This document shows, piece after piece, positions 4,810-44,536 of a stretch of DNA of 64,000 bases. Below the pieces are notes generated by a model. The model was given only the letters and a program-made list of their open reading frames with translations. It was not told the DNA's origin and did not search any database. A program made the position numbers and the translations under genes. Numbering within the stretch: the stretch's first letter is position 1; each line of letters starts with the position of its first letter. This DNA is from Chrysomallon squamiferum. Taxonomy: Eukaryota > Animalia > Mollusca. The stretch covers positions 8,060,001 to 8,124,000 of the forward strand of contig CM022674.1 in the NCBI GenBank assembly GCA_012295275.1, read 5' to 3'.

Positions 4810-11752
<6,943 letters not shown>

Positions 11753-12260: not shown

Positions 12261-12263
<3 letters not shown>

Positions 12264-12327
<64 letters not shown>
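12264..12327. repeat. (GA)n microsatellite
   Basis: Pure GA run between the ARF-like promoter and the caspase A 3' end. Confidence 0.95.
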
Positions 12328-12330
<3 letters not shown>

Positions 12331-12845: not shown

Positions 12846-15127
12846 TTAAAAGAATATTTTTTTTAAAATCCAACTAAAAATAATGATTATGATGAATATT
12901 ATCATGTCAGCGTAATGTTTCCAAAACCATTCCACTAAGAAAACACTTCCTTCTTTTCCTCCTCTGTAAGAAACATGCCCTGTAACACAGAAAACAAGTT
13001 AAATGTAAAGCTGTAAATAAAATAAATATAATGGTAAAGCTGTTACTTGATAGAAATAAAGTAAGTTAAAATGGTAAAGTTCTAAATAAATTAAACTGCA
13101 AGGTAAAGCTGATACATACAAAACTGAAAATATAATGCAGTAACTAATATTAAAAAGTCATTTATATATATTTTTCTAAAATTTTGTATTCCACATTACA
13201 GAAAAAAAAAAAAGATATAAAAATTAAAATTAAATGGTAAAAAATATCACATAACTTTGGCAGTCTGGCCATTGTGCTGTCCTGTCAAAGCTATTTAATG
13301 TTTTGTATGATTAAAAAACCAAACAACAAACAAACAAACAAATTCGTGGTTTCACTGATTTTATTTTAGTTTCGTATATTATTTATATTACAACTGTAAA
13401 ATGCATCTTTTATTTGTTTTATAAATCATCAAACTATATTCAGCTTAATTCTGTGTTCTTGTTTTATTTCATTTTAGGCATCCAATCTTATTTCATAACA
13501 AAGTATGTATAAAACAAAAGAGAACACTTTAAAAAAAATTGGTTATCATGGTCTATATTCGTGGCATCATCTCTTTGAGGGCAGATTAATTCGCTCTAAA
13601 GTTTCATTTTTTTCAGAATAATGAAGCTATCTGTACACTAGATGTGCAATGTTGAGAAGATGCAAAAATGGCTACATTCAGACATTTTTGTTATTCTGTG
13701 TTATATCTGATAATAAGTCAACAAAAACAACAAAATAATGGCTTTGAATGTCAAAGAATTTTTATCAAGTTATTTATACATGCAGACACAAAAATGTTTA
13801 AATAACAAAATGTATATGAAAAGATAAATGGTATTGTAGTATACTGTTGTTATTTACCTTGTATTGCAAAAATCATGTCACTTTGGTCTGGTCGACAGGT
13901 GATGTTTGACAGCTCCTCACAATTTCCCTGTGCAACATCATCTGCTACAACATCATTACATTGTGAAGCAGAAGCACAGCCCTTGTCCTCAGTACCTGCA
14001 ATTACATCATTAATTTATACACTCTGTATTCTTCTTTTATTTTAATATCAATCTTCTATTGATATTCTAAACCTATACTACAGCTATCTCCATATATTCT
14101 GAAAAGAAATGAATAAAAATAATAAGGAAAAAAGAAGGAACAACAAAGAACGCCTGTATTTAATAAGTGAATCACACCTGAAATAATGGCTGGATGACTT
14201 TCTTGTACTGCGGACATTCCTTCACTCAGAGCTGACTCCATTACTTGTGTGTTTTTATGATCTAAAAAAATAAAAATTAATAAAAATAATAAAAACGGAC
14301 ACATCAGCTGAATGAAAGTTTCAAACTTGAAACTACATGTATTAATCAGAAATTGAATAAAATAAAATAAAATGAAATAAAATAAAATAAATAAATAAAT
14401 AAATAAACAAATACAGAAATAAATTAATAACTAATTAACTAAAGAAGTCAATCAAATCAGTAAGTCAATACATAAAGTAAAAATGAGAAAATAAAGAAAA
14501 ACAAAAGCTGAATAATTGTATCTTACCTGTATTAAATGTGTTATTACCTGGGTTACTTTCTTGTACTGGTACAGGAATCCCTTCTATGCCCTGATACTCC
14601 ATTACTTGACGTTCATCATGATCAGATGACCTCTCTTCTCTCACTTTATATTCATTTTTCCTGATTTCATCAGCACAGTGTTGGTGACCAGTATCAATCA
14701 AACAAGATATAAAATCTTCATATGCCTCTTTTGGTCGTCTGTTCAGATCAGAAAGTAACATCTGAACTTGTTGAGTTCTTGTTTTGCAGGGCTTAAAATG
14801 ATAAATTTCAAAATTATTTCAAACTAATTGTCATCAGTGACAATGTTTATGCAAAGATTCATCTGAATATATCAGCCTCCACAACCAAACAAGATTGTTA
14901 TTTTAAGTTACAAATAAAGCTACAACATGAAACCATAAACAATTACATAGCTCCTTAGTAAATTTCTAAAACATATTTATGTCATAAAAATAAACAAAAT
15001 AAAACAAAACAACCCCCTCCAAAAACCAAACAAAAAATAAATACAATAAAATAAAATAATAAATAAATAAAACAGCTAAAAATAACAACAAATTTTGAAA
15101 AAATAAATGCTAATAATGCTGCTGCTG

Positions 15128-15158
<31 letters not shown>

Positions 15159-15423
15159 ACTACTACTACTACTACTACTACTACTAATAAATAATAAAAA
15201 TGTAAACAAAAAATAAAGGGAATAAATAAATTAAAAGCAGATGTTTAAAAATATTCTTAGTCGTGTGTGATGAAGAGAGAAATAATACCATCATCATAGG
15301 CTCCAACATCATTTCTGTAAAGATTCCTTTAACTAGAAGTTCATTCCAAAGAGTATCTGGTATGATATTCTCTATGAGAAACAGACGAGATAGAAAAAGA
15401 GCCTCTTTCTGAATGTCATCCAT
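12846..15423 (-). CDS. Caspase paralog A: protease-dead CARD protein lacking the large subunit, with a novel hydrophobic C-terminal tail (~251 aa)
   Basis: Exons 15423-15289 (MDDIQKEALFLSRLFLIENIIPDTLWNELLVKGIFTEMMLEPMMM), 14791-14527, 14261-14178, 13995-13858 (GTEDKG...PDQSDMIFAIQ), 12979-12846 (GHVSYRGGKEGSVFLVEWFWKHYADMIIFIIIIIFSWILKKIFF*). The joined frame is open for 756 nt. No SHG or QACRG exons lie between 14178 and 13995. Confidence 0.7.
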
Positions 15424-15525
15424 AATGGAATAACAAATATCCTAGTTGTCTGAATATGATTTCGAAAGTAATTAAAAACAGAAAATAATAAGAGTTAAAT
15501 ATCTACTTAACAGGTTGTCAAACAG

Positions 15526-15609
15526 AAAATCGAAACTCATAGAGGGGCTTTCCCAAATAAAATCCTGTCCCAGCATGTGTTTTAGAACCCATTTGGTCGT
15601 ATTGCGTCA
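15526..15609. promoter_or_regulatory. Putative immune/stress-responsive motif cluster upstream of caspase A (IRF-like, kappaB, C/EBP-CRE hybrid)
   Basis: GAAAATCGAAACT (~15526), GGGGCTTTCC (15544-15553) and ATTGCGTCA (reverse TGACGCAAT, 15601-15609). The last two motifs recur upstream of copies B, C and D. Confidence 0.4.
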
Positions 15610-15849
15610 GTACATATAACAGACGCAATTTAGGAGATACTTATTCTAATTTCATTTTTGGGGGTAGGTTAAAGATGTGCAAACTATGAGAAGAAACCAG
15701 CAACAAGCCAATAAAGGATACTGATTTTTATTTGAACTTTTATCACGACAGGAAACAAGTATATGCTTATTAATCGATATTTAATATGAATTTTAATATT
15801 ATTATGATTTATGGTTGACATTTATCCTCAAAATTAATTTCATTTGGAA

Positions 15850-15885
<36 letters not shown>

Positions 15886-18796
15886 TTTCAGATAAATTAC
15901 AATACATTAACTTCAGTTATGTTTAGTCTAATAGCTTAAGGAATTATTTTGTCTTTTTTACTAGTAAATTATTTCTTTTTAGAGGAAGTTCTTCCATCAA
16001 CGAGGTAGAAAATAGATTACACCTGAAGGAATGGACACAGTGTTGCAGCTATAGGTTTCGTAACTTTAAAACAAATTACGATGAAGAAAGTTGTTCATTT
16101 ATTATCTGTGGTAAATTTGAAACAGTTGTGGCCATCTCGGTTGATGTGCAGTTTGTTATTGCAGTTGGCTGAATAAATTTCTTTCAGGAGCGTTTGTTTT
16201 ATTTTTTTATTTTACAGTAAGAACGATGTATCTAACATTCATTTCATTTTTTTTTAATTTTTTTAATAAGAACGAACGTAAATTACCAGTTTTTAATCAT
16301 ATTAATAGTGAACGTTAACTTTCCAGATTTAGATCTTGTACATCTTGGACAGTGATATTTAATTACGTTACATCTTAAAGGATTAGAAAAAAGTTAAAAT
16401 ATCCAGAAATGCGAAGATCCAGAGTTTCATAGTCTGGAACGACTTTTTTTTTATTTCTGGGACTTTTTTCCATCTGGGGAGGGCAGTTATGTCTCACCGC
16501 TAGAGCTGTGAAATCTGTTCAGTGATGCACGTTAGAGATTCTTTTCTGTTAAAAACTAACTGCTCCATAAAACAATCCAAGGGTCCGCTTGTTACCAACT
16601 GAGGGGTTGCGACATGGACTGAATACTCGCCATATTTTTGACCCATGTTTATGACCCCTTTGATACAAAAACAAACTGAGTTTTGTAAAAGTGTAATTAC
16701 TGTAATATAAAGTAGATATCCTTTATTTAAACAAAGCTAAACATTAGGCAAACAAAGTGTAAACAAACTGCACTTAGGTGCTGCCAGGTACACGATAACA
16801 TGTGTAGACGATGTGTAACTGGAAGTTTGGTCGTATTGTAACTTTCAGCTTTCCATCGTGGGTCGTGCGTTTGGAAATCACTGGCTAGAGGAGAAATTAC
16901 TTCTTATTTCTCTAGCCTAGCGTAAAGCCTATACACGTAAATCTTTCTACTTACTTGATGAAAACTCTTCTGTTGATTGTGCTTTAGAAAGTTGCACTTT
17001 TTTTTTATGTCGCTCTGCGACTAATTCAATAAGACAATGCAAAATGTTCGCTATGTGTATTTATGCCGACTTCTGCTTTTGACACTAAAACTAAACGAGT
17101 GAATTCACTTAGGTATCAACACACACATTTATTATTAGTACTGTATTGTTTTGTTACTACTACTACTACTCTACCACTACTACTACTATTTTATTTATTT
17201 ATTTATTTTTACATTTAATTTCTTTTAGAAGGTCAAAGAAAGTTCAGACTACAGCTGCAGGACATATTGTTAAAATCAGGAATTTCTTGTATAAATGTCT
17301 GATAAAGTCTCGAAGCAGAGCTAATTACGTCAGCAATTACTGATTTAAATAATTATTACTGATCAATACGTTTTTATAAACTTTTTTCCAGAATAAGATA
17401 AACGTATTATGAACTTTATTTTACCTTTTATAACAATGGTATAAGACTTTGGGATATATACATTTGATGGAAATTTAGTTTTGTTAGTAAATCATTTAAT
17501 CTGAGTTGATTTTGTTTTGTACAGATGGGTATGTGTATCTTACAGACTTTTCAGGTATGGACATTTATTAGGAATGTTTTATCTTTATACATAATTTTTT
17601 TAAACTTAATTATACCTACGTTAGTTTATTCATACCTGACTTAGTCAGTGTACTTGAAAATTAATGTTATTTCGTTTCTTTTCTGTCCAAGCAAACATTG
17701 CCCTCCCGTCAACTCGCGCCTCTGTAAAACTTCTCTAATGTCGGCTTTTTGGAGAAGCGAACCACAGTACTAATGAACCTTTTTTTTCACTCGTGAAATT
17801 AGCCGTGTCACAAAGAAAATATAGCGATCTGCAGTCTGCCTATGACTGTGGTGTATCTCACATAATTTCTCTGTCAAACACACAAACACATACACACACA
17901 GAGAGAAAAAAAAGAAAGACAGAAGAGAAAGAAAGGAAGAGAGAAAGAGAAGGAAATCAATCTAAAAAATACAGGTAAAAAATAATAAACTATATGATAG
18001 TAGAGCATGCTTGCTGTAAATTACATGATTTAAATATGCCTATAAATAAATAAATAAATAAATATGTAGTATTATTGTTGTTGCATTTTTCTTTCTCTCT
18101 TACATATTATTATTTTTAATTTTTTCACTATAATCCTTATTATAACTATTTCGATCATAAAACTATATTACTTTATATGACTGAGTTAACTGTCCTAACA
18201 TGTTTTACTTTAACATTTAAAAAACACACTGAAGAGATCACATTGCTAGAACGTTAACGCCATGTCAGAATTTAGATTTGTTGATTGAGTATACTCTGTA
18301 GTACTGAAATTCTTAACTATTTATAAGTGGATACAATTTGCAAATACATGGAGTCTTCACATATTGTATTATTATCATTATCATTATTATTATATTGTAT
18401 TTTTTTAAATTAAAAAAAACAAACCAACAACAACAAAACAACACTATATTAATAAAAAAGAAAGATTTAATACATCATTTTGTTTAACATATTATTTTAA
18501 TGTTAATGTTTCATATTTTGACATTTTACTTTTTATGATCATTTTGTTAATTATTTTGTTTCTTGGAAGCTGTTGTAAAAATCTGTATGTGGGTGTGATC
18601 ATTTAGTTTTAAGCCAATCAATTTTTTTTCTTTTTATCACTTTTGGTCAAAATTTTATTTTTTGTTTCTGACCAATAAACAAAATATATATATTTTTTTT
18701 TTTTAATTTTTGGCATTCAATTTTGTTTTTCTTTAGTTAAAATGAGGTTCTAGCATCTTGAAAACTAAAAAACAAACATTTTTAATTGAAAAACAT

Positions 18797-21715
18797 CTAG
18801 TCAGGATTGAAAAACCATTTCTTTGTCAGCTGATTCAGTGGAGAAGGTAAAGTTTTAAAACCTTTTTTATGCTGAAATTCATCAACAATTTTTTTTGTTT
18901 ACCTGAAAACAAACAAACAGAAAAAAAATTAAATGCTTTTCAGAAATATTATTAATGAAACTAATCAAGTATTTGACAAATTTAACTTACTAAATTGAAA
19001 AACAATAATATTAGTGACTAACTTACTAATTTGACAAACAATATTCGTGACAAATTGTCTAATTTGACAAACAACAATATTAGTGACAAATTGATAATCT
19101 GGCAAATTATTAATTAGTTACAAATGTATTGACCAGTTTTTTAATAATTAAACAAAAAATATCATTTGTCCTCCATTCTACAGGGAAATATTTTTTGTTC
19201 ATCTCTACAAGTCTTTTATCAAAGGTTTTCCTATATATTCTCCCATCTTGAAAATATAAAGATTCCTTGACATTAATTTAAATAGAATCACCATTTACTT
19301 TTTCACCACGTTTTCTCTCTCATTATGATCTTAATGATATACACAGTACCATGTATTCCTAGCTCAAGATTATATTAAACTAAAAAGATGACTAAAAGTA
19401 ATGATTACCATGATTAACATGTCAGCTAGATGTTCCTGACGCCATTTCTGTGAGAAAACATCAACCAGGGCATTGATGAAAACACTTCCTTCTTCTTCAT
19501 TTCTGTAAGAAACATATCCTGTAACACAGAAAACAAGTCAAATGTTAAGTTGTAAATAAAATAAATGTAAGGTGAAACTGTTATGTGTCACTACTGACTG
19601 TTTGAATTTAATATTAGTTATTGATTAGTGAATTGAAGTTTACAATCTTCTTTACTCTTATTAAGAGTTAAATGTAAAGCAGAATATATTCAGCATAATT
19701 CTGTGTTCTTGTTTTGTTTCTTTTCAGCCATCCAATCTTATTTCATAACAAAGAATGCATAATAACAAAAGAGAACATTTAAAAAATTTGGCACCATTAG
19801 TTTGACAGAAGATTAATTCGCTCTAAAGTTTCATTTTGTGTTGTCATAAAAATAAAGCTATCTGTACACTAGATATGCAATGCTGTAAAGATGCAAAAAT
19901 GGCTTCATTCAGATATTTTTGTTATTCTGTGTTATATCTGATAATAAGTCAACAAAAACAACAAAATAATGGCTTTGAATTTCAAAGAATTTTTATCAAG
20001 TTATGTATCCATGCAGACACAAAAATGTTTAAATAACAAAATGTTTATGAAAAGATAGATGGTATTGTAGTGTACTGTTGTTATTTACCTTGTGTTGTAG
20101 CATGTGCAAAAATCATGTCACTTTGGTAGTGGCGAGGAGTGATGTTTAACAGCTCCTCACAATTTCCCTGTGCATCAACATCTGTTATCCTCAATAACTG
20201 CAATTACAACATCATTAAATTATACACACTATATTCTTCTTTTAACATTCTTGTATTGATTGATATTCTGAACCTATAAACAGCTACCTCAATATAGTAT
20301 TCCCCCGAATTATTATTATTATTGTCCTACTACTATTACTATTACTGTTATTATCACTATTATTACAACTATTATTTATACATAATCATCATTATCTGTA
20401 TTTTTTATCATTTTTCATTATTTTTAATTTTATTTTATTTTTCATTATAATTTTAGTGATTTGTTTTATTTTAAAATCTGAACCTTTTACTTACAGCTAT
20501 CTCCGTATATTCTTAAATCTTAAAATTATTATTATTATTATTATTATTATTATGTTATTTTTTTTTTTTTTTCACTATTTTTTTATTTTTATTTTTTAAC
20601 AACATTTTACATACCTCCACGACAAGCTTGTATAATAAAGAATTTAGGTTTCCCCTCTAGTTCTGGACACATCCTGTTACCAAACCAACTTTTGAGATCA
20701 TCCACTGTGATGTAGTTGTAAGGTACATTCTCAGACACATATCCATCAGTGCCAAAAATTTTGTCACCATGGTCACCATGTGAAAGAATGACCACTACCA
20801 AAGAATCCACAATTTTGTTGTCTGGATGCTTAGAAAACTCTTTAAGTCGTCTTTCCATTTCCTGTGAGAAATAACATTACTGATTCACACAGAAAGAAAA
20901 CAAAAGAATAATTTCTGAATTTAGAAAATTGACTTTGACACTGAATCACTGCTGAATTTTACTATTATTAATTTAACTTTACTATTATTAATTTTTATAA
21001 AATTTAACTTTGTACAAGGAAAACAACTAGTAACAGGTTAAATTCACTAAAACATAACAGCTTAAATTCTTCAAATTGTTTATTGCTTTTTGAATAATAA
21101 TGAATCCATAGATATAGATGGAAAAATTTAATGTAAATAGTATATAAACATTTTAAAATTCACTTAATAAAATTGAGAATATCTCTTAACATAAGTAATA
21201 ATTTTGAATTCTAATTTTGTTTTATTAAAGGATTGATTAGAAAAATAATAATAATAGTAATAATAATAAAAAGGAACTTTCATACTATGCAACCAAAATG
21301 TTTGCTTTTATATATATATATACATATTTTCTTAAATTCAGACAAATAATTGTATACTTCTGCAGGAAATCAATATTTGTAACTAACCTTAATAAAACAA
21401 AACAACACAACACACACAAAATTAAGAACAATACCTTTGCTTTCAGATCTCTGTCAGAACATACAGAATACCCCAACATAAAAAAGAGTTTTGACAACTT
21501 TTGACAATCAACATCAGTGCCATTACGTTTATCAAGGCTGTCAAAGTTATCATTGTTTACAATGTATACAAAACCCCTTGGTTCAGACTCCATTCTATAA
21601 ACATCCTGAAAAAGAAAGGTATTTTAATATGTATTTTAAAAATGTTATACATTTTGATAGTCACTTTTATGCTTCATTGTCAAATACACTTAATATTTAT
21701 TAATATTAAAGACTA

Positions 21716-21752
<37 letters not shown>

Positions 21753-23284
21753 TAGAAGTAATTTGTGTACTCACATTTCCCAAAACACAATTGTAATGGT
21801 ACGCAACAAAGCTAACTTTAAAGTAAGAATGAAGAATACATAAATATTCTTCTGTACACACACACACACACACACACACATGTGTGTGTGTTATTCTGAA
21901 TTATGTCAGTACAGATACAAACATGAAGTAAGTTTTTCAAATGTCATGACATTAAAATATCTGCTGAATTGATATAATAAATATTTAAAAAATAATTTAA
22001 ATAAATATAAAAATAAAGAAAGAAGAAAAGAGATGAATAAAAGTAATAAGGAAAAAAGAAGGAACAACAAAGAAAACCTGTATTTAATAAGTGAATCACA
22101 CCTGAAATACTTGTTGGATGACTTTCTTGTACCGGGGACATTCCTTCACGTTGATCACACTCCATTACATGTGTGTCTTCAAAAAAAAAAAAAAAAAAAA
22201 AAAAAGACATCATCTGAATAAAAGTATCAAACTTGAAACTACACGTATTAATCAGAAATTAAATAAATAAATAAATGTATTAAAATGTAAAAATAAATAA
22301 TTTAGTAAATAACTAAATAAAATAAAATAAAATAAACAAATACAGAAATAAATAAATAAATAAATAAATACTGAAATAAATTAATAACTAACTAACTAAG
22401 TAAATAAATAAAAAAATCGATAAATAAAGTAAAATAAGGAGAAAATAAAGAAAAACAAAAGTTGAATAATTGTATCTTACCTGTATTAAATGTGTTATTA
22501 CCTGGGTCACTTTCTTGAACTGGAGCAGGAATCCCTTCTTGTCGTTCACCATGACCAGATGCCCTCTCTTGTCTCACTTTATATTCATGTTTCCTGATTT
22601 CATCAGCACAGTGTTGGTGACCAGTATCAATCAAACAAGATATAAAATCTTCATATGCCTCTTTTGGTCGTCTGTTCAGATCAGAAAGTAACATCCGAAT
22701 TTGTTGAGTTCTTGTTTTGCAGACCTTGGAAAGTTAAATTTCTTAATTATTTCAAATTATTTGTCATCAAACATTATGACAATGTTATGCAGATTCACAT
22801 GAATATATCAGCCTCCATGCAACCAAACAAGACTGTTATTTTACTTGTCATACTTTAAGTTACAAATAAAGCTATAACATGAAACCATAAACAAGTACAT
22901 GTAACATAGCACCTCAGTAAATTTCTAAAACATATTTCTATCATAAAAACAAACGAAATAAAAATAACAAACCCCCCCCAAAAAAAATAATAAATTGTAA
23001 AAAAAGAAAGAAAGGAAAAAGAAAAAGACAAAAATGAAGAAAATAAAATTGTAAATAACTAATAAGAAAGAAATAAAGAAACGAAATAAATAAATTAAAA
23101 GCAGATGTGCAAACATATTTTAAGTCGTGTTTGATGAAGAGAGAAATAATACCATCATAGGCTCCAACATCATTTCTGTAAATATTCCTTTAACTAGAAG
23201 TACATCCCAAAGAGTATCTGGTATGATTTTCTGCACAAGAAATAGTCTAGATCGTAGAAGAGCCTCTTTCTGAATGTCATCCAT
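18797..23284 (-). pseudogene. Caspase paralog B: full exon set with intact SHG/QACRG but frameshifts in exons 7 and 9 (pseudogene or truncated product)
   Basis: Exons 23284-23153, 22724-22481, 22176-22102 (original acceptor deleted; in-frame cryptic AG), 21815-21775, 21605-21435, 20861-20615 (LSHG, QACRG), 20197-20089 (109 nt versus 144 in copy D; reads VIEDNRC*), 19518-19409, 18902-18797 (8-A run versus 7 in copies C/D; reads VNKKNC*). Confidence 0.7.
18975..19105. repeat. Degenerate ~32-35 bp tandem repeat in caspase intron 8 (paralogous copy at about 31450-31580)
   Basis: Recurrent TAATTTGACAAACAATATTAGTGAC-like units. Confidence 0.65.
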
Positions 23285-23682: not shown

Positions 23683-23713
<31 letters not shown>

Positions 23714-26336
23714 AATAACAATAATAATAATTATTAATAATTTTCAGATAAATCATAAATAATTAATTTCAGTTATGTTTAGCCTACTAATAGCTTAAGG
23801 AGATATTTTGTCTTTTACTAGTAAATTATTTCCTTTTAGGGGAAATTCTTCCATCGACGAGGTAGAAAATAGATTACACCTGAAGGAATGGACACAGTGT
23901 TGCAGCTATAGGCTTCGTAACTTTAAAACAAATTACGATGAAGAAAGTTGTTCATTTATTATCTGTGGTAAATTTGAAACAGTTGTGGCCATCTCGGTTG
24001 ATGTGCAGTTTGTTATTGCAGTTGGCTGAATACATTTCTTTCAGGAGCGTTTGTTTTATTTTTTTATTTTACAGTAAGAACATTCATCATTTTTAGTTAA
24101 TGTTAATAGTGAACGTAAATACTAACTTTTGAAAGAAGCAAGTTACGATTTAGATCTTGTACACCCATTGTGATATTTAATTAAGTTACATCTTAAAGGA
24201 TTAGAAAAAAGTTAAAATATCCAGAAATGCGAAGATCCAGAGTTTCATAGTCTGGAACGACTTGTGTATTGTTATCTTCTGGGACTATTTCTCCATCTGC
24301 AGAGTCAGTTATGTCTCACCGCTAGAGCTGTGACATCTGTTCAGTGATGCACGTTAGAGATTCTTTTCTGTTAATTAACTAACTGCTCCATCAAACAGTC
24401 CCAGTCGGTCCGCTCGGTGACTGATGTGGGTGATGAGGGGTGCGACATGGACTGAATACTCGCCATATTTTTGACCCACGGAAAAGTCTAACTCGACTTC
24501 TTTGATACAAAAACAAACTGAGTTTTGTAAAAGTGTAATTACTGTAATATAAAGTAGATATCCTTTATTTAAACAAAGCTAAACATTAGGCAAACAAAGT
24601 GTAAACAAACTGCACTTAGGTGCTGCCAGGTACACGATAACATGTGTAGACGAAGTAACTGGAGGTTTGGTCATACTGAATTTGCCCCCTAGTATATTCA
24701 GATTTCCCCCGCTTCTGGTCTAGTGATAGAAGTGACTTCTCCTTATTTTTCTAGTCCAGCGTAACTCTGGATGGGTAAATCTTCCTGTTTACACAGTGGA
24801 TTTGATGAAAATACTTCTGTTAATTTTATTTTTTAGAAAATTTGATGCATTGCTGTTATCTTAGGTCGCTCTACCGTTACGACTAATTCAATAAAACAAT
24901 GCAAAATGTGCGCCATATTTATGCAGACTTCTGCTTTTGACATTGAATCTAAATGAGCGAATTCACTTAGGTATCAACACATTTATTATTAGTACTACTA
25001 CTACTATTTTATTTATTTATTTATTTTTACATTTAATTTCTTTTAGAAGGTCAAAGAAAGTTCAGACTACAGCTGCAGGACCTATTGTTAAAGTCAGGAA
25101 TCTCTTGTATAAATGTCTGATAAAGTCTCGAAGCAGAGCTGATTACGACAGCAATTACTGATTTAAATAATTATTACTGATGAATACGTTTTTATAAACT
25201 TTTTTTTTTTTTTTTTTTAAAGATAGATATTGATATTAAACACATAAACAAGATAAATGTATTATGAACCGTATTTTACCTTTTATAATAATGGTACAAG
25301 ACTTTGGGATATCAAAATTTGATGGGTGTTTTGTTTTGTTAGTAAATCATTTAATCTGTGTTGATTTTGTTTTGTACAGATGGGTATGTAGAGACTTTTC
25401 AGGTATGGACATTTGTTAGAAATGTTATATCTTTATACATATTTTCTTAAAACTTAATTATATCTATGCTAGTTTATTCATACCTGAATTAGTCAATGTA
25501 CACAATCCCTTTACAATTAATGTTATTTCGTTTCTTTTTTGTTCAAGCAAACATTCACATTCCTCCATCTGTAGAACTGTTAGTATTATAATCATTTACA
25601 TATATGATAGCAAGGCATGTTTGTTTATTTATGTAGTATTATTGTTGTTGCATTTTTTCTTTCTAACATATTATTATTTTTTTGTTGTTTTAGTTTAATC
25701 CTCATTATAACCATTTCAATCATAAAACTATATTACTTTATATGACTGAGTTAACTGTCCTAGTATGTTTTACTTTAACATTTAAAAAACACACTGAAGA
25801 GATCACATTGCTAGAACGTTAACGCCATGTCAGAATTTAGATTTGTTGATTGAGTATACTCTGTAGTACTGAAATTCTTAACTATTTATAAGTGGATACA
25901 ATTTGCAAATACATGGAGTCTTCACATATTGTATTATTATCATTATCATTATTATTATATTGTATTTTTTTAAATTAAAAAAACAAACAAAAAAAACCGA
26001 CGAAGCAATATTAATAAAAAAAGAAAGATTTAATACATAATTTTGTTTAACATATTATTTTAATATTGGTTTCATATTTTATTTACATTTTGTTATTATT
26101 TTTGGCAATCAATTATTGTTTTTTTTCTTTAGCTTTAAAATGACATTTATTGCGCCTAGAAAACAAAAACACACATTTTTAGTTAAAGAGGTTCTAGTGT
26201 TGACCTGTGTCAGGATTGAAAAACCATTTCTTTGTCAGCTGATTTACTGGAGAAGCTAAAGTTTTAAAACCTTTTTTATGCTGAAATTCATCAACAATTT
26301 TTTTGTTTACCTGAAAACAAACAAACAGAAAAAGAA

Positions 26337-28297: not shown

Positions 28298-28713
28298 CAT
28301 CAAAATGATTACGAATAAATTAAAAAAGAAAATAATTAAGAGTTAAATATCTGCTTAACAGATTAATCAAATAGGAAGTCGTAATACGGGGCTTCCCCCA
28401 GTAAAAATAGCTCCATTTAGAATTGTCTCAACAGTTTTAGAACCCATTTGGTCGTATTGCGTCAGTACACATAACGAACGCAATTTAGGAGATACTTATT
28501 CTAATTTCATTTTTGGGGGTAGGTTAAAGATGTGCAAATCATTCTAAAGATGTACAAACTGTGAGAAGAAACCAGCAAATAAGCCAATAAAGGAGACTGA
28601 TTTTTATTTGAACTTTTATCATGACAGGAAACAGTCGATATTTAATGTACTGACTTTTATTATTATTATGAAATATGGTTTACATTTATCCTCAAAATTA
28701 ATTTCATTTGGAA

Positions 28714-28765
<52 letters not shown>

Positions 28766-31259
28766 ATAATAACAATAATAATAATTATTAATAATTTTCA
28801 GATAAATCATAAATAATTAATTTCAGTTATGTTTAGCCTACTAATAGCTTAAGGAGATATTTTGTCTTTTACTAGTAAATTATTTCCTTTTAGGGGAAAT
28901 TCTTCCATCGACGAGGTAGAAAATAGATTACACCTGAAGGAATGGACACAGTGTTGCAGCTATAGGCTTCGTAACTTTAAAACAAATTACGATGAAGAAA
29001 GTTGTTCATTTATTATCTGTGGTAAATTTGAAACAGTTGTGGCCATCTCGGTTGATGTGCAGTTTGTTATTGCAGTTGGCTGAATAAATTTCTTTCAGGA
29101 GCGTTTGTTTTATTTTTTTATTTTACAGTAAGAACGATGTATCTAACATTCATCATTTTTAGTTAATGTTAATAGTGAACGTAAATACTAACTTTTGAAA
29201 GAAGCAAGTTACGATTTAGATCTTGTACACCCATTGTGATATTTAATTAAGTTACATCTTAAAGGATTAGAAAAAAGTTAAAATATCCAGAAATGCGAAG
29301 ATCCAGAGTTTCATAGTCTGGAACGACTTGTGTATTGTTATCTTCTGGGACTATTTCTTAAACCTGCAGAGTCAGTTATGTCTCACCACTAGAGCTGCGA
29401 CATCTGTTCAGTGATGCACGTTAGAGATTATTTTCTGTTAATTAACTAACTGCTCCATCAAACAGTCCCAGTCGGTCCGCTCGGTGACTGATGTGGGTGA
29501 TGAGGGGTGCGACATGGACTGAATACTCGCCATATTTTTGACCCACGGAAAAGTCTAACTCGACTTCTTTGATACAAAAACAAACTGAGTTTTGTAAAAG
29601 TGTAATTACTGTAATATAAAGTAGATATCCTTTATTTAAACAAAGCTAAACATTAGGCAAACAAAGTGTAAACAAACTGCACTTAGGTGCTGCCAGGTAC
29701 ACGATAACATGTGTAGACGAAGTAACTGGAGGTTTGGTCATACTGAATTTGCCCCCTAGTATATTCAGATTTCCCCCGCTTCTGGTCTAGTGATAGAAGT
29801 GACTTCTCCTTATTTTTCTAGTCCAGCGTAACTCTGGATGGGTAAATCTTCCTGTTTACACAGTGGATTTGATGAAAATACTTCTGTTAATTTTTTTTTT
29901 TAGAAAATTTGATGCATTGCTGTTATCTTAGGTCGCTCTACCGTTACGACTAATTCAATAAAACAATGCAAAATGTGCGCCATATTTATGCAGACTTCTG
30001 CTTTTGACATTGAATCTAAATGAGCGAATTCACTTAGGTATCAACACATTTATTATTAGTACTACTACTACTATTTTATTTATTTATTTATTTTTACATT
30101 TAATTTCTTTTAGAAGGTCAAAGAAAGTTCAGACTACAGCTGCAGGACCTATTGTTAAAGTCAGGAATTTCTTGTATAAATGTCTGATAAAGTCTCGAAG
30201 CAGAGCTGATTACGACAGCAATTACTGATTTAAATAATTATTACTGATGAATACGTTTTTATAAACTTTTTTTTTTTTTTTTAAAGATAGATATTGATAT
30301 TAAACACATAAACAAGATAAATGTATTATGAACCGTATTTTACCTTTTATAATAATGGTACAAGACTTTGGGATATCAAAATTTGATGGGTGTTTTGTTT
30401 TGTTAGTAAATCATTTAATCTGTGTTGATTTTGTTTTGTACAGATGGGTATGTAGAGACTTTTTAGGTATGGACATTTGTTAGGAATGTTATATCTTTAT
30501 ACATATTTTCTTAAAACTTAATTATATCTATGCTAGTTTATTCATACCTGAATTAGTTAATGTACACAATCCCTTTACAATTAATGTTATTTCGTTTCTT
30601 TTTTGTTCAAGCAAACATTCACATTCCTCCATCTGTAGAACTGTTAGTATTATAATCATTTACATATATGATAGCAAGGGCATGTTTGTTTATTTATGTA
30701 GTATTATTGTTGTTGCATTTTTTCTTTCTAACATATTATTATTTTTTTGTTGTTTTAGTTTAATCCTCATTATAACCATTTCAATCATAAAACTATGTTA
30801 ATTTATATGACTGAGTTAACTGTCCTAACATGTTTTACTTTAACATTTAAAAAACACACTGAAGAGATCACATTGCTAGAACGTTAACGCCATGTCAGAA
30901 TTTAGATTTGTTGATTGAGTATACTCTGTAGTACTGAAATTCTTAACTATTTATAAGTGGATACAATTTGCAAATACATGGAGTCTTCACATATTGTATT
31001 ATTATCATTATCATTATTATTATATTGTATTTTTTTTAATTAAAAAAACAAACAAAAAAACCCGACGAAGCAATATTAATAAAAAAAAGAAAGATTTAAT
31101 ACATAATTTTGTTTAACATCTTATTTTAATATTGGTTTCATATTTTATTTACATTTTGTTATTATTTTTGGCAATCAATTATTGTTTTTTTTCTTTAGCT
31201 TTAAAATGACATTTATTGCGCCTAGAAAACAAAAACACACATTTTTAGTTAAAGAGGTT

Positions 31260-34045
31260 CTAGTGTTGACCTGTGTCAGGATTGAAAAACCATTTCTTTG
31301 TCAGCTGATTTACTGGAGAAGCTAAAGTTTTAAAACCTTTTTTATGCTGAAATTCATCAACAATTTTTTTGTTTACCTGAAAACAAACAAACAGAAAAAG
31401 AATTAAATGCTTTTCAGAAATATTATTAATGAAACTAATCAAGTATTTGACAAATTTAACTTACTAAATTGAAAAACAATAATATTAGTGACTAACTTAC
31501 TAATTTGACAAACAATATTCATGACAAACTGACTAATTTGACAAACAACAACATTAGTGACAAATTGATAATCTGGCAAATTATTAATTAGTTACAAATG
31601 TATTGACCAGTTTTTTAATAATTAAACAAAATATATCATTTGTCCTCCATTCTACAGGGAAATATTTTTTATTCATCTCTACAACTCTTTTATCAAAGGT
31701 TTTCCTATATATTCTCCCATCTTGAATATATAAAGATTCCTTGACATTAATTTAAATAGAATCACCATTTACATTTTCATCACGTTTTCTCTCTCATTAT
31801 GATTTTAATGATATACACAGTACCTTGTATTCCTAGCTTAAGATTATATTAAACTAAAAAGATGACTAAAAGTAATGATTACCATGGTTAACATGTCAGC
31901 TAGATGTTCCTGATGCCATTTCTGTGAGAAAACATCAAACAGGGCATTGATGAAAACACTTCCATCTTTTTCATTTCTGTAAGAAACATATCCTGTAACA
32001 CAGAAAACAAGTCAAATGTTAAGTTGTAAATAAAATAAATGTAAGGTGAAACTGTTATGTGTCACTAATACTGTTTGATAAGTCAATCAAAACAACAAAA
32101 TAACGGCTTTGAATTTCAAAACTTTTTTATGAAGTTATTTATCCATGCATACACAAAAATACTTTAAATAACAAAATGTATATGAAAAGGTAAATGGTAT
32201 TGTAGTGTACTGTTGTTATTTACCTTGTGTTGTAGCATGTGCAAAAATCATGTCACTTTGGTCTGGGCGAGAGGTGATGTTTAACAGCTCCTCACAATTT
32301 TCCTGTGCAACATCTCTTACAAGGCTGTTATTTTGTGAAGTAGAAGATAAGGCCGCATCCTCAGTAACTGCAATTACATCATTAAATTATACACACTATA
32401 TTCTTCTTTTAACAGCAGTCTTGTATTGATTGATATTCTGAACCTATACAACAGCTACCTCAATATACTGTATTCCGAAATCTTAAAATTATTATTATTA
32501 TTACCGTTACTATTACTACTACTGTTACTGTTATTATCACTATTACAAATACTATTACAATTATCATAATCATAATGATTATTTTTATTATCATAATCAT
32601 CATTATCATCATTATTTTTATTTTATTTATCATTATAATTTTATTATTTGTTTTAATTTTAAAATCTAGAAACATTTTATCTTATTAATATTAATATTAC
32701 TACTACTATTACTGTTATTATTAATATTACAATGATTATTACTACTATTATCATCATCATCATCATCATTATTATTATTGTTATTATTATTTTTTTTTTT
32801 TTACTATTATAATTTTATTTTAATTTTTAAATTTTGAAACAACATTTACATACCTCCACGACAAGCTTGTATAATAAAGAGTTTTGGTTTGCCCTCTAGT
32901 TCTGGACACATCCTGTTACCAAACCAACTTTTGACGCTGTCCACTGTGATGTAGTTGTAAGGTACATTCTCAGACACATATCCATCAGTGCCAAAAATTT
33001 TGTCACCATGGTCACCATGTGAAAGAATGATCACTACCAAAGAATCAACAATTTTGTTGTCTGGGTGCTTAGAAAACTTTTTAAGTCGTATTTCCATTTC
33101 CTGTGAGAAATAACATAAATGATTCATACAGAAAGAAAACAAAAGAATAATTTCACTATTATTATTTATTTTTAAATTTACATTTGTACAAGGAAAACAA
33201 CCTGTACTGATTTTGAAATGGTGCACTGAAAATAACTAGTAACTGGTTAAATTCATAAAACATAGTAAACATCTGAAATTATTTTTGCTTTCTAAATAAA
33301 TAAGAGTCCATAGACATATAATGTAAATGGTATATGAACTTTTTAAAATCCCACTTAATAAAAGTGAGAATATCTGTTAATATATGTAATAATTTTGAAT
33401 TCTAATAATAAAAAGGAACTTTCATACTATGCAACCAAAATGTTTCCTTTTATAAAATACATACATATACATATTTTCTTAAATTCAGACAAATAATTAT
33501 ATAGTTCTGCAGGAAATCAATATTTGTAACTAACCTTAATAAAACAAAACAACACAACACACACAAAATTAAGAACAATACCTTTGCTTTCAGATCTTTG
33601 TGAGAAATTACAGAATAGCCGAACATAGAAAAGAGTTTTAACAACTTTTGACAATCAACATCAGTGCCATTACGTTTATCAAGGCTGTCAAAGTTATCAT
33701 TGTTTACAATGTATACAAAACCCCTTGGTTTAGACTCCATTCTATAAGCATCCTGAAAAAGAAAGGTATTTTAAAAGAAAGGTACATTTTGATATTTACG
33801 ATGTATTTGAAGTGCTTTTCATGCTTTATTGTCATATACTGTTAATATTTACTAATATTATAGATTAAATATATATATGTATATAAAATAATAATACAAA
33901 ATTTATCAGTAATTTATAAAACGGTCATGTACTCACATTTCTCAAAGCACGTCGTTCATAGAATACAGAACTAACTGCAAATAAGAATGATGCATACAAA
34001 AATATTCCTCTTTATTTTAAAGTGCAAATTCATTTAAAAAGGAAG

Positions 34046-34088
<43 letters not shown>

Positions 34089-35646
34089 GACACACACAAT
34101 CATACAAAAACACACACACACACACACAGACACACACACACACACACACATATATTCATATATTATTCTGTATTATGTTAACATAGATACAAACTTGAAG
34201 CAAAGTTTTTCAAAAGAAAATGTCTTCTGAATAGATATAATAAACATGAAAATAAATTAAAACAATAATAATTTAAATAAAGAAAGAAAGTAAGAAAGAA
34301 AGAAGAAAAGAAATGAATAAAAGTAATAAGGAAAAAAGAAGGAACAACAAAGAAAACCTGTATTTAGTAAGTGAATCACACCTGAAATACTTGTTGGATG
34401 ACTTTCTTGTACCGGGGACATTCCTTCACGTTGATCACACTCCATTACATGTGTGTCTTCATGATCTAAAAAAAATCAAAGAAAAACGACATCATCTGAA
34501 TAAAAGTATCAAACTTGAAATTACACGTATTAATCAGAAATTAAATAAATAAATAAATAAATAAATGTATTAAAATGTAAAAATAAATAAGTTAGTAAAT
34601 AAATAAATAAATAAATAAGATAGTAAATAAATAAATAAAATAAAATAAAGAAATACAGAAATATACAAATTAATAAATAAATAAATCTGAAATAAATTAA
34701 TAACTAACTAACTAAATAAATCAATAAATAAATACTGAAATAAATTAATAACTATCTAACTAAGTAAATAAATCAGAAAATCGATAAATAAAGTAAAATA
34801 AGGAGAAAATAAAGAAAAACAAAAGCTGAACAATTGTATCTTACCTGTATTAAATGTGTTATTACCTGGGTCACTTTCTTGTACTGGAGCAGGAATCCCT
34901 TCTTGTCGTTCATCATGACCAGATGACCTCTCTTGTCTCACTTTATATTCATGTTTCCTGATTTCATCAGCACAGTGTTGTTGACCAGTATCAATCAAAC
35001 AAGATATAAAATCTTCATATGCCTCTTTTGGTCGTCTGTTCAGGTCAGAAAGTAACATCCGAATTTGTTGAGTTCTTGTTTTGCAGACCTTGTAAAGTTA
35101 AATTTCTTAATTATTTCAAATTATTTGTCATCAAACATTATGACAATGTTATGCAGATTCACATGAATATATCAGCCTCCATGCAACCAAACAAGACTGT
35201 TATTTTACTTGTCATACTTTAAGTTACAAATAAAGCTATAACATGAAACCATAAACAAGTACATGTAACATAGCACCTCAGTAAATTTCTAAAACATATT
35301 TCTATCATAAAAACAAACGAAATAAGAATAACAAACCCCCCCCCAAAAAAATAATAAATTGTAAAAAAAGAAAGAAAGGAAAAAGAAAAAGATAAAAATG
35401 AAGAAAATAAAATTGTAAATAACTAATAAGAAAGAAATAAAGAAACGAAATAAATTAAAAAAGCAGATGTGCAAACATATTTTAAGTCGTGTTTGATGAA
35501 GAGAGAAATAATACCATCATAGGCTCCAACATCATTTCTGTAAATATTCCTTTAACTAGAAGTACATCCCAAAGAGTATCTGGTATGATTTTCTGCACAA
35601 GAAATAGTCTAGATCGTAGAAGAGCCTCTTTCTGAATGTCATCCAT
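31260..35646 (-). CDS. Caspase paralog D: intact CARD-containing initiator caspase (caspase-2/9-like), ~428 aa
   Basis: Nine in-phase exons 35646-35515, 35088-34845, 34465-34382, 33974-33937, 33752-33582, 33100-32854, 32367-32224, 31992-31883, 31376-31260, totalling 1287 nt. Motifs: YRMESKPRGFVYIVNN, KRNGTDVD, ILSHG, GKPKLFIIQACRG, PDQSDMIFAHATTQG, VSYRN..GSVFI, LTKKWFFNP. Confidence 0.93.
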
Positions 35647-38600
35647 CATGATCATTGATCATGAAACAACAAATAATAATTGAAATATCGCATCCACCAC
35701 TAATTTACCAATCATCCATAATTATTACCATCACATTATTTTCACTGGTTTAATGTATATAACAGTAGGTGAGGTTAATTCCAGTTGTCTGAAAATGATT
35801 TAGAAAATAATTAGAGTTAAATAACTACTTAACAAATTAGTCAAATAGGAAGTCGAAACTTGGGCTTCCCCAGATAAAAATAGCTCTGTTTAGAGTTGTC
35901 TCCTCAGAGTTTTGGAACCTATTTGGTCGTAATTGCGTCAGTACCCGGTGGGGAACAGTATTAGATATAACAGATGCAATTTAGGAGATACTTATTCTAA
36001 TTTCATTTTTGGTTGCTGTTTAAAAATGTGAGGATCATTCTAAAGATGTACAAACTGTAAGGAGAAACCAGCAACAAGACAACAAAGGACACTGATTTTT
36101 AAGTTAACTTTTATCACGACAGCAAACAAGTATCATGACGCTGATACCTTCATATACTTATTTCTCGATATTTAATGTACTGTATTTTAATACTATTATG
36201 GAATGTAATTTCTGAAGAAAAAAAAAAAATCTAGAAAGATATTATAATATAGTACAACATGTGTGTGTCTGTGTGTTAAAAATTATCCATTGTTTTAATT
36301 TCATGTTCAGGTTTCAATATTAATTTTATTGAGATGCTTCTAAATAAGTTTGCGACAATTATATTTTTATTTTCATTTTGATGTAGAATTTAGCAATAAA
36401 TATATTTTTTTTAAGTGGAATCAGTTATAACTTGTTTTATTAAAATGCTGTTTTCTTTTATACAACAAAAACATGGTGAGGAAACGTAAAAACAGTGAAA
36501 GAGTGAACTGGTTGTCTCTCGTGTTGATCAGTTCAGCCACACTCTAACAGTAAATCACTTTATTTATTCCTTGTTTCTGTATTCATTTACGTGTGTGGAT
36601 GTGCGTGCGTGTCTGGGAAATCTAAGGTAAAGTTAAATATTCGTTGGGTTTCACTTTAAGTTACATTATTAAGAAAAAATAAAATTATAAATAAACAAAT
36701 AAAAAGATTTTTGAGGCAGAGTTGCTTAGCAACAAAATGCTGTAATGTTGTTGCGCAAGTTACAGCATAGTTCATACTTCAAAATTATCTGTAGGCAATG
36801 TTGTGAAACAACATACTATCATAGTGGGGAAAAACGCCTCGTTTGGACCTGCCATAAGCAGATTAAAATAAAATATATTTAACTATAGCAACGTCAGTTA
36901 TAAAGCCAAAGTCGTCAAGTTACAATCCATCCAATCTAACAACAGACATATAATTAAATAAAATACCTAAATACATTAATACATAATGATATGAACCGGC
37001 TTCAATTAATGGGTATGCGCCGATTTAGGACTGCTTTAGACAAAAGATGTCTTATCCCAAGTAAATTGATTACGGCAATAATCTTGTCAACAATTAAAAT
37101 ACCTAAATACATTAATACGTAACGATATGAGCCGAGTGCTATAAAATAACGCATAAAATAACTATAAAATAACAGACCAGTGTCTCGTCTGCGACAGACA
37201 CGCCCGCTGACCTGTCAGAAAGTGTGCCCGTCGCAGACGTGCTTCACAACAGCTTGCTCTGATTAGCACGTTAATTTTTTTCATTCATTCATTCAGTGTC
37301 CAGTTACAACGCACTTGGCTGACCAGCAATAAACACTTTGGAACTCGGCTCATCTCTCTTTCATTTTTATATTTAGACTGGACCCCATTGCTCCCAGACT
37401 GCATTCCCCAAAGTAATTCTACAGCAAATAGTAACAGCAAAATAACAACCAAGGACAAATTGAACACGGTTATAATATCATCCATCAATAAATAAATCCT
37501 GTGTAAAAATGTTTTAAAAAACCAACAAACACAAGTTATTTATATTTCTTGTATTTTCTTTCACTCTAGAGCTATTTCACTCAAACCTAACAGTGACAGG
37601 TAACATACTACAGCATGTCAAAGAAAACATGAAGTTCAGCATTCATTTTATTAATTTTTTTTGTGCCAATATTGTATTAATAAACTGTTCACAAAAAATA
37701 CAGGAAGAAAAAAGAGCCTTTTTTTTCTGATCACTTGTTCATAAAATCTGCTTCGTTTATATGCTAGACAAAAACAAATGAACGACTGAATAAAATGTTG
37801 TATTAATAATAGACATTTACTCAAGATCATTACATTTATTAGCTGTCACAACAGATAAACATCATGTTCTTTCAGTACTCACACATTTGACACTGGATGA
37901 ACAGACAAATATAGATGTATCTGTTTGCATAATAACACTGGCCTAAATATAAATTGAAAATTTCAGTAATTTTTTGGAAACTGAAAACCAAACTTTGTTA
38001 ATTATTCAGTTTATACATTTGCATGTTACATTTTTGTTTTGTATCTAATAGCCAATCTTTGCTAATAATAATATTGACAGTTTGTATTTCCATATTACCT
38101 TTTTTTGCTAATAATAATATTCGTAGTCTGAATATTTCCATGAAAGAGTAATTTAAAAACACATTCCTTCACATCGGACTAACAGTTTGAATATTCATAC
38201 TTTCATCTTTGGGTAAAATTTCAAACTTTTTCTTTATTCAAAACTAATAATTTTTTTTATTGATATTACTTACTGTATATGGTTTTAAAGAATAACAAAT
38301 ACACACCTATAAATATACATGGATTGCAAACGTTACAAAAACTGCTCAGATATATAGCAATATAACAATCCCATTCTGTAACCGATTACATAACACACAT
38401 TCTATGAAAACATACAATAACACACTCATATATAAATAGAACACTAACTGAAAAATGATAAAATCTAGTAAATTCACAATCTTTTCAACATTCATAGGAT
38501 ATACATGTTTTAAAAAAACCTAATATTTATATACGTTAACAGAAGCTAAATAAAATACAGACCCCAAAATAACCAGAACAATAAAATTCTTAAATGTCTT

Positions 38601-42243: not shown

Positions 42244-42286
<43 letters not shown>

Positions 42287-42664
42287 AAAAGCCTATCTGT
42301 ATTCATGTAAGATGTGATTCTGTGATTTGTATGTCTCTTGTTTGTGTAGATGTATTTTTCACTAACTCAGTTTCACTTAAATACCTTCAACCCTCAATTA
42401 GCCTCATTTGAAAATAATATACTTCTTAGATATTGCACAGAATGTTTTACAAATTATGCCAAATAATAATATAATGTTATGTATATTTTATGTACAAAAT
42501 ATGTATTTACAATGAAAATGTTTCCAAAACTAAACAGATCATTTAAAAAATAATGGTCCACCTAAATATGTTCATGAAAATACTTCTCTGTCAAATATGG
42601 CTAAAGCATGATAAGTATTCATCACATTAGCAAAATAAATTATAAAACTAAAATAAACTGTTAA

Positions 42665-44134
42665 CTAGAGCTCTTGCAAAGCTTTGTCAAATTGGTCTTC
42701 ATCTATGGATATGCTAAAAGTAATCCCCAAAACCCCAGTTTCTCAGCAGTCCCTCCTGATAGTAGCAGAAGTTCCATCTTCTTCTGCAGATTTCCATTTT
42801 TGTAATGTTCTCGTATCCTAGCAACATGTTCCTTGGTCATGCAGATGTTGAAGATGGAAATGTTTTTGTTGTCACTGAAGATCTGAAGAATTAGAGTTCC
42901 TCGCTCTTGTTCAAAATACTTCACCACTTCGTTCTTTAAATGGTCGTCAAACAGTTTGTAAAATTCCGTAGCTTTTTCTTCATACTTCTTACCAGTGGAT
43001 TTCCACTTTTCTACCAAGGAATTTGAACCATTTACTGAATGTTTGGAACCAAGTATCTGTGAGTATCTTTTCAGTTCCACCAACTCTAAATTTCCATTGT
43101 ATCTCATGATAACAGGGTCAGTGTTTTCTTTGTTTTCTCCATCTGTCTTCATCCCACCTGGGTGTTCGTTTCTGTAATTTTTAAACCGTACAACTGAAAC
43201 ATCATTACAAGGATTATCTCCACTGTTTCTGGAGTTGTCTGTATTTCCATTCATTTCTGAGTCTTGTCTGATATGTCTCTGATTTGTTTCTGGGTAGCAT
43301 TTCCTTCCTGAGCTTGGAGAATACATTTTATCCTTGCTTGATGACTTTGAAGTAACTTCAGATTTCGACTTGTTTTTGTGACTGTCATCTCGTTTTGCTG
43401 AGTACTGTTTTGCTTTGTTCTTTCTTCGAAATGGAAAACACATGCACCAACACGTCCTCTGTGGTTTAACATCTTCTTCGTCTATATCCTCCTCCTGTGA
43501 GTGAGAGTAACTTAAAACACGAATTGGCCGTCGTGAAGCTGTTTCTTCTGGTTCTATCATCAACATGTTATCATAGGACTTGTGTAGTCGTCGCGGAGTC
43601 ATCTTCACTTCAACAATTTCACGTTTTTTGACTCGTTCAATGGGCGAGCCCTCATCTCTGGGCAGCAGAATTTTTATAGCTGCCACTTTAATCTGCACCA
43701 CCACCTGCCCTAAAAACATACACACAAAATAAAATTAATGCAAAAACACTTGATAATTTCATTGCCTCCATCTCATACTGTTGCTTGTTATGGATAAACA
43801 TGATGTGGTAATGCTTTGAATATTCTGCATACATTTTATCATGATGGGTAGTATATAACTTAAACTGTAAGTAAAATATTTGTTAACTGCTGTTTAATAA
43901 GAAATATCAGAAATACTATAATCTTAAAGTTTAATAAAATAATAAAATTAGTTTACCTTTGTGTCTTCTCTTCTCCCAATAACCTAAAATTAAAAAAAAT
44001 TGTTTTTTTAGTTAGTGTATAAGTAATTTACTCAGAAAATCAATAAGTATTAACCAATCTTCAATAATAATAATCATTAGATAACACCAACTCCAATGAC
44101 AACAATAATATCAAACAATAACAACAATATGTGT

Positions 44135-44168
<34 letters not shown>

Positions 44169-44536
44169 TTGCATTGTATGTATGTTATGTATAAGGGTAG
44201 TTTTGTTCATATATCATGAAAATTGTGTGTGTGTGCATGTTCTTTCTTACCTGTTCCATATATAGGTTTTATTCGCTGGGAGACATCGAGAGAACTTGCA
44301 AGATGAAGCTGTCCTGACTGTCGCAGGGCGTTGATGAACAGCGCCACGGCATTGTGACCGCCATCCTCCACGTACTTGAGCAGCGTCGTGTTGCGCTGCA
44401 GCTGTGACTTCTCCTGACAGATGTCAGTGACAACATCGCTGGTGAGGACGCCATGCTGGAGAAGGTAGTCGAAGATAAGTTCAATGTCAAGGCTCTCTAT
44501 AAGATCTTGATGGTTTGCTAACTGCTCTGTTAGCAT
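42665..44536 (-). CDS. CARD-domain protein with a disordered middle region and a probable TRADD-N-like C-terminal domain
   Basis: CARD exon 44536(ATG)-44251 (MLTEQLANHQDLIESLDIELIFDYLLQHGVLTSDVVTDICQEKSQLQRNTTLLKYVEDGGHNAVALFINALRQSGQLHLASSL), 27-nt microexon 43983-43957 (GYWEKRRHK), and last exon from 43709; all phase-1 GT-AG junctions. As assembled the frame stops at 42703. One extra G at 42733-42736 would extend it to a stop at 42665. Confidence 0.8.

Follow-up and report, generated by a model that had tools for sequence, protein, structure and literature searches.

For CASP1 and its relatives CARD16 and CARD17, PMC11383037 describes a history of duplication, pseudogenes and gene conversion. 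Three further systems bear comparison with the locus reported here: caspase-9b, described in PMC5410359; csp-2 and csp-3 of C. elegans, which PMC3591282 reports as apoptosis inhibitors; and the oyster caspase-2 genes, whose CARDs are encoded by two exons according to PMC7836458. Here we analyzed a 64,000-nucleotide stretch of the genome of the mollusc Chrysomallon squamiferum (assembly GCA_012295275.1, contig CM022674.1, positions 8,060,001 to 8,124,000; the window), which contains five CARD-bearing genes between positions 12846 and 44536, all on the minus strand. Four of these are caspase copies, A, B, C, and D, and the fifth is an unrelated gene, E. In the literature searched, which left most subscription papers outside, neither this locus nor any CARD-only caspase copy from a mollusc is described.

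An earlier, sequence-only reading of the window had counted five same-strand CARD genes within 32 kb, as borne out here, and had explained them as an enzyme-plus-decoy/adaptor module; nothing that we found shows a working module. We favor, at a probability of roughly 0.58, a four-copy tandem CARD-caspase array in which D is whole and expressed, with A, B, and C as by-products of birth and death rather than tuned decoys. The genes are as follows, positions being those of the window.

31260..35646, minus strand: copy D, whole CARD-caspase, nine coding exons, 428 residues, SHG and QACRG motifs
26194..28297, minus strand: copy C, exons 1-4 followed by a partial exon 5 fused to intron 8, intact exon 9, 208-residue product by read-through
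18797..23284, minus strand: copy B, all nine exons, three lesions (exon 3 acceptor, exon 7, exon 9)
12846..15423, minus strand: copy A, single open frame of 251 residues over exons 1, 2, 3, and 7 and a read-through exon 8, from alignment to D
12846..12910, minus strand: hydrophobic tail of A, from the 5' end of intron 8 by alignment to D, best 19-mer hydropathy 2.52
42665..44536, minus strand: gene E, exons 44536-44251 (CARD), 43983-43957 (27 bases), and 43709-42665 (long), splicing seen in both RNA runs

Copy D, the whole enzyme

Exon borders of all copies were found by motif and then translated. The exons of D lie at 35646-35515, 35088-34845, 34465-34382, 33974-33937, 33752-33582, 33100-32854, 32367-32224, 31992-31883, and 31376-31260, in a window whose GC content of 25-37% is that of AT-rich animal DNA. 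Pfam Peptidase_C14 matches fall in exons 5, 6, and 8 of D, with the catalytic motifs and both subunits in one frame. The Pfam CARD scan took in exons of D, A, and E and matched D exons 1-2, A exon 2, and E exon 1, with no match for A exon 1; exons 1-2 of B and C were judged by their likeness to those of D, from which they diverge by 0-6%.

Contigs of two DNA runs (X1 and X2) and two RNA runs, the latter both from one study, were placed on D and E; contigs of this kind cannot show that a sequence is absent. D is spliced in both RNA runs, whose contigs break off at the borders of exons and include exon sites, leaving out those in introns. The best match of D is Gigantopelta aegis XP_041378168.1 (exon 6 identity 63%, compared to 45% for Casp.2a), which carries the label Casp.2b in the supplement of PMC11463336. 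By this best match D is likely the lophotrochozoan caspase-2b, and an assignment to caspase-Y was dropped because of the label. Sequence and expression together suggest that D is an active protease. Caspase-2-type initiators are recruited through their CARD, and D is predicted to act in the same way.

The runs also vary within D. At site 33063 in exon 6, neither RNA run agrees with the window or with either DNA run, which is likely an allelic difference. A minor exon 7 form in run X1 (32314-32326, depth 35) has net-zero indels; it resembles A and B and may be an undeleted allele.

The altered copies C, B, and A

The sequence-only reading held that A, B, and C keep intact CARD and linker exons and that every truncating lesion falls after the prodomain. 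The second pattern is present, but exons 1-3 and the introns that go with them account for 28.8% of the span of the gene, so that five lesions all falling later has P ~0.18 and is not beyond chance. That B and C have whole CARD exons is mainly a consequence of recent copying from D, and the first claim does not extend to the exon 3 acceptor of B, described below.

In copy C, the joint between mid-exon 5 and intron 8 lies at ~26358, with ~2.2 kb of D missing and a stop 6 codons on. Although C was described as CARD-only, it retains the linker and ~36 residues of exon 5, while the catalytic motifs are gone. C differs from D by 0-2% in most 250-base intervals from 35230 down to 28980, and the spacers after the two copies are 98.6% identical over a stretch that takes in exon 9. 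Judged by this divergence the deletion is very young, and so there has been too little time for selection on the truncated form. Both ends of the deletion are crossed unbroken by contigs in both DNA runs; the joint itself was not among the 15 listed of 45, which for contigs cannot be read as absence. When DNA depth was compared with predicted 31-mer copy number, X1 fell between the C-deleted and C-whole predictions and X2 fell below both.

The three lesions of copy B differ in kind. At exon 3 the acceptor AG is replaced by a T-run, with an in-frame AG 9 bases on. Exon 7 is 35 bases shorter than that of D, a difference that does not lie in a run, and exon 9 has 8 A in a run compared to 7 in D and C, a lesion missing from the earlier account. 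The outcome at exon 7 depends on the acceptor. Use of the first AG gives a frameshift and a stop 6 codons past QACRG (310 residues), which is the stop previously read just after that motif; with the third AG, 16 bases further along, the frame is kept as far as exon 9 (377 residues), though its context is the most purine-rich (7 T of 20 versus 10). B keeps all catalytic motifs, but its frame hangs on acceptor choice; D is whole, as the earlier reading stated. Nonsense-mediated decay removes messages with early stops, and would likely remove a first-AG message of B.

Copy B is also a mosaic. Over exon 1, intron 1, and exon 2 it differs from D at 10 of 802 positions, compared to ~12% over the stretch that runs from exon 4 through intron 6 (p 3e-22). 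Its large subunit has been constrained (23/418 differences in exons versus 165/1313 in introns, p 3e-5) and is nearer to the outgroups than that of D, with 2 B-derived residues against 8 D-derived and 4 ambiguous (p 0.11). From this constraint and the nearness to outgroups, B likely worked as a protease until recently, and it may be whole in other haplotypes. B and D differ at 18 sites in exons 6 and 8. At the eight of these that were listed, the RNA carries the D letter seven times; the eighth shows the B letter in all four runs. This hints weakly that expression of B does not reach the level of D.

These data bear on a further reading, in which B, possibly along with C, is a whole caspase, be it in other animals or even in the one assembled here, and the lesions are assembly errors or private alleles of a copy-number-variable cluster. 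Two of the three lesions of B sit in homopolymer runs, and a proven one-base assembly error at a run in gene E (below) weakens both as real lesions; the third is bypassed by an in-frame AG. The catalytic motifs and constrained large subunit of B, the unbroken contigs over the ends of the C deletion with the joint missing from those listed, and the minor exon 7 form of X1 point the same way. Conversely, the 35-base loss in B lies outside any run and its bypass needs the most purine-rich AG, the RNA shows mainly D letters, and the depth over the C deletion agrees with neither prediction in either run. We consider whole B and C unlikely, and retain the view that both are by-products of the array.

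Copy A is missing exons 4-6, exon 9, and the donor of exon 8, and reads into intron 8. Its frame encodes the CARD, the linker, a damaged small-subunit remnant, and a hydrophobic C-terminal tail, in agreement with the earlier description of a copy with a tail but no large subunit. Pfam finds only the CARD in A, exons 7-8 give no caspase match, and the catalytic motifs are missing. With introns 9-15% from D, A is the most diverged copy and, by that measure, the oldest. The small subunit carries core deletions of 9 and 24 bases (3 and 8 residues), both in frame (P 0.07-0.10); since they cut the core, they likely arose at or after the loss of protease function. These deletions and the missing exon 9 argue against an inhibitor of the caspase-9b kind. 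The loss of exons 4-6 is phase-compatible, as would be 12 of 28 internal deletions. Between A and D, the CARD has a nonsynonymous rate (dN) of 0.066 and a synonymous rate (dS) of 0.139, a ratio of 0.48 (p 0.15) that is compatible with neutrality; this dN is near the 0.07-0.10 expected for a drifting A beside a constrained D. In exon 7, dN is 0.197.

The tail of A consists of a hydrophobic segment followed by two lysines, with an AATAAA 160 bases past the stop. Only 2.4% of 11,347 non-coding start points give an equally hydrophobic 15-mer read-through. The same intron 8 read-through is already hydrophobic in D and B (2.03 and 2.37, compared to 2.81 in A), so the tail appears to be largely inherited from an AT-rich intron.

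Several observations weigh against treating all three altered copies as by-products. In A, 251 codons are open, and each of its six indels relative to D has a length divisible by three (for one of them, an alignment with gaps of 2 and 1 is an alternative), while in non-coding alignments this holds for 21/79 indels. In a neutral simulation with rates taken from the spacers, A stays open in 0.1%, 2.6%, or 18% of runs when it is unconstrained over the whole, one half, or one quarter of its branch. A and D differ at 27/376 sites in exons 1-2 compared to 81/645 in introns 1-2 (p 0.008). The stops of A and C would lie in the last exon, and their messages would thus escape decay. The proximal upstream block is kept in all copies, and A, B, and C may be expressed, the contigs examined being those on D and E. 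Lastly, the C-D CARD dN/dS of 0.15 (p 0.011) favors the sequence-only reading. For C, however, 8 of the 10 differences in exons 1-2 fall in exon 1, so the low ratio probably predates the deletion, and exon 1 of C is likely an older allele with a history of its own.

A was under selection for translation over much of its past branch and, as far as a single sequence can tell, may still be translated, possibly as a decoy. A alone could be a functional CARD decoy or scaffold that binds the activators of D, perhaps tethered to a membrane, with B and C as debris. The frame kept open through six indels and the phase-compatible exon loss speak for this, as do the two in-frame core deletions that likely followed protease loss, the lower dN in the CARD than in exon 7, and the rarity of so hydrophobic a tail together with the nearby AATAAA. 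It is weakened by a CARD ratio not significantly below 1, by in-frame indels that may partly predate the loss of function, by the inherited nature of the tail, and by a small-subunit remnant too damaged to match caspase-9b. On balance a decoy role for A is possible but improbable.

A bolder version treats A as a newborn gene that lost its protease in frame and gained a tail-anchor from its own intron, giving a CARD-linker-tail-anchor protein; this layout recalls that of MAVS. Such a protein would trap or concentrate caspase-2b and its activators at a membrane, and would have arisen independently of the primate CARD-only proteins. This version is quite unlikely on the present evidence. A single G. 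aegis cluster is close to D, and none of seven candidates scored as a relative of its CARD of 30-243 residues; both points, the latter weakly, speak for the birth-and-death array. A CARD-exon search of representatives gave 31 matches, and among the nine looked up the short ones were mostly unnamed fragments, with no CARD-only family.

Spacers, origin of the array, and gene E

The repeat unit of the array consists of the caspase, ~0.5 kb of upstream DNA, and most of intron 1 of the neighboring ARF gene. That neighbor had been correctly named (Pfam Arf 1.9e-18). The features outside the caspase copies are listed here.

4810..11752, minus strand: ARF-family gene flanking the array, its intron 1 containing one end of the duplicated unit
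15850..18796, minus strand: spacer after B, same origin as the spacer after D but more diverged, from self-alignment
23690..26193, minus strand: spacer after C, same origin as the spacer after D, to which it is near-identical
28700..31259, minus strand: spacer after D, caspase 3' flank and copy of ARF intron 1, from self-alignment to 7062-11650 and 12348-12414
35650..36200, minus strand: proximal upstream block of D, copied before A, B, and C, with a TGACGCAA site in all four copies and a kappaB-like site that fits the consensus in A and C

In the self-alignment, the spacers match ARF intron 1 (7062-11650) and then continue directly at 12348. All three lack the promoter and exon 1 of the ARF gene (11650-12348), with joints at 18302-18307, 25867-25872, and 30932-30937, and the simplest reading is a single ancestral loss. 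Until then, a caspase copy would have had the ARF promoter upstream of it. A block of ~250 bases in ARF intron 1 (7630-7882) is 83-89% conserved in the spacers, above most of its surroundings, with copies at 16349-16578, 24155-24419, and 29221-29486. It gave no match in a Pfam scan and is possibly a regulatory element or a repeat.

The TGACGCAA site lies upstream of D at 35940, C at 28464, B at 23450, and A at 15609, and kappaB-like 10-mers lie upstream of A (15544) and C (28388). The identities of these motifs are our presumption and serve as leads only; each is one inherited site, and ~1 per window is expected by chance. An acceptor-like site before the start is kept in A and D and missing from B and C.

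The concern that the duplication might be an assembly artefact can be set aside. The upstream junction common to B and C is present in both DNA runs, which come from two studies (depth 118.8 and 16.7), and the duplicates therefore exist outside this assembly. In run X2, a D-like intron 5 is joined to an exon 6 with B letters, which fits continued exchange between copies. Across 31887-32938, X2 contigs that are otherwise D-like carry B-type letters in exons 6 and 8, which suggests chimeric alleles or collapsed copies. The array was likely built by unequal crossing-over with conversion. A first duplication would have left A beside the ARF gene, followed by one loss of the ARF promoter from the spacer; later crossovers would have given B and then C, with exchange with D refreshing the 5' half of B.

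Gene E has a CARD in exon 1 (Pfam 3e-14). An apparent frameshift near 42732-42733 is a one-base assembly error at a run, the extra base being present in all four runs, and the restored end matches its relatives. Exon 3 is 66% identical to G. aegis and 47% to Haliotis, and self-alignment finds no duplicated DNA common to E and the array. By these comparisons E is an old, conserved neighbor and not an array member, contrary to its earlier inclusion in the module.

The C-terminal domain of E had been called TRADD-N-like. No Pfam hidden Markov model (HMM) matched it in the window exon 3 or in four relatives, while in a domain atlas that of the G. aegis relative lies near PF20694 and PF09034 with scores below the naming bar of the tool. 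Against PF20694 clusters, the same domain reaches 0.92 by features and a template modelling (TM) score of up to 0.78 by model. The AlphaFold model of this relative has a mean predicted local distance difference test (pLDDT) score of 36.6, is confident in the CARD only, and falls below 50 at the C-terminal domain. A PDB sequence search with the E alignment found CARDs and no TRADD chain among its 32 rows. The domain is thus likely TRADD-N-like by features and model, but not by HMM.

Equal-sized contigs suggest that the G. aegis relatives of D and E share a chromosome; their accession numbers differ by 168, which does not imply adjacency. A complex prediction of the G. aegis CARDs of Casp.2b and E, in which custom alignments were not used, scored 0.22 and 0.00 against a mark of 0.34 and is no evidence either way.

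A full module, in which A, B, and C serve as selected decoys and E as an adaptor and all of them tune D, would draw on the CARDs kept by three truncated paralogs, the primate precedent with its CARD homogenization, the expression of E, the equal-sized G. aegis contigs, and the low C-D ratio. It is very unlikely, since the C deletion is too young for selection and the low ratio probably belongs to an older allele, B has the history of an enzyme, E by its exon 3 identity to Haliotis predates the array, and the lesion pattern lies within chance. The birth-and-death array remains our preferred reading.

Further observations concern the surroundings of E and D. A minisatellite at 44534-45842 (offsets ~29 bases) adjoins the start codon of E, and an RNA contig carries 351 letters ahead of 44530; untranslated exons upstream are therefore likely for E. 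At ~43430-43460, the motif WCMCFPF precedes a basic stretch of E and is conserved in all aligned relatives; we take it to be a possible lipidation or membrane site. Between E and D, contigs of both RNA runs cover 37548-38490 and 38754-39291, with no listed open reading frame above 84 codons. The segment ~37190-37285 is a very high-copy repeat (summed depth ~200,000 in X1 compared to ~70 for single-copy DNA), likely a short interspersed element or a miniature inverted-repeat transposable element. A GC-rich stretch near 37200 was dropped as the promoter of D because of this repeat. At 63052-63264, a weak Pfam match to F-actin capping protein beta (E 0.00075, below the cut-off) agrees with the CAPZB label of the sequence-only reading.

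Comparison with described systems

Should A prove silent, what remains is an ordinary birth-and-death array of caspases, of use chiefly as a caution that errors of run length in this assembly can mimic pseudogenes, as happened in E. Should A be translated and regulate D, a mollusc would have taken the primate path from caspase duplicate to CARD decoy independently, and intron read-through would be shown able to supply a membrane anchor.

Copy D shares the CARD-linker-p20-p10 layout of G. aegis caspase-2b, with identities of 55% in the CARD, 62% in p20, and 73% in p10. The gene is present here in four tandem copies, while one G. aegis cluster close to D was seen among the matches, as judged by best match and not by a tree. 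The two-exon CARDs of the array are also found in the oyster caspase-2 genes.

Like caspase-9b, A combines a CARD with small-subunit exons, the large-subunit exons having been removed in frame. In A, however, the loss is genomic rather than by splicing, and the small subunit lacks 3 and 8 core residues and its last exon. The C. elegans pair CSP-2 and CSP-3 consists of invertebrate caspase homologs that reportedly act as inhibitors, in their case on CED-3, and caspase-derived inhibitors in invertebrates would therefore not be new in kind. CSP-3 is a small-subunit-like protein without a CARD. The C-terminal domain of the G. aegis relative of E resembles PF20694 TRADD-like_N clusters by features and model without an HMM match, and E pairs this domain with an N-terminal CARD in place of a death effector domain or death domain.

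The human CARD16, CARD17, and CARD18 parallel drawn in the sequence-only reading is a fair analogy, the CARD half of B being near-identical to that of D. Both loci have tandem CARD-caspase duplicates, truncated copies, and CARDs overwritten by the enzyme, and the array shows a homogenization of the CARD half like that of CASP1 and CARD16/17. The parent of the primate CARD-only proteins is CASP1, whereas here it is a molluscan caspase-2-type gene. In A the CARD is the only Pfam domain, C adds ~36 residues of exon 5, and B has a whole large subunit. Compared to CARD16/17/18, the copies described here keep 70-160 residues or more beyond the CARD and are much younger, and for them expression and inhibition are putative.

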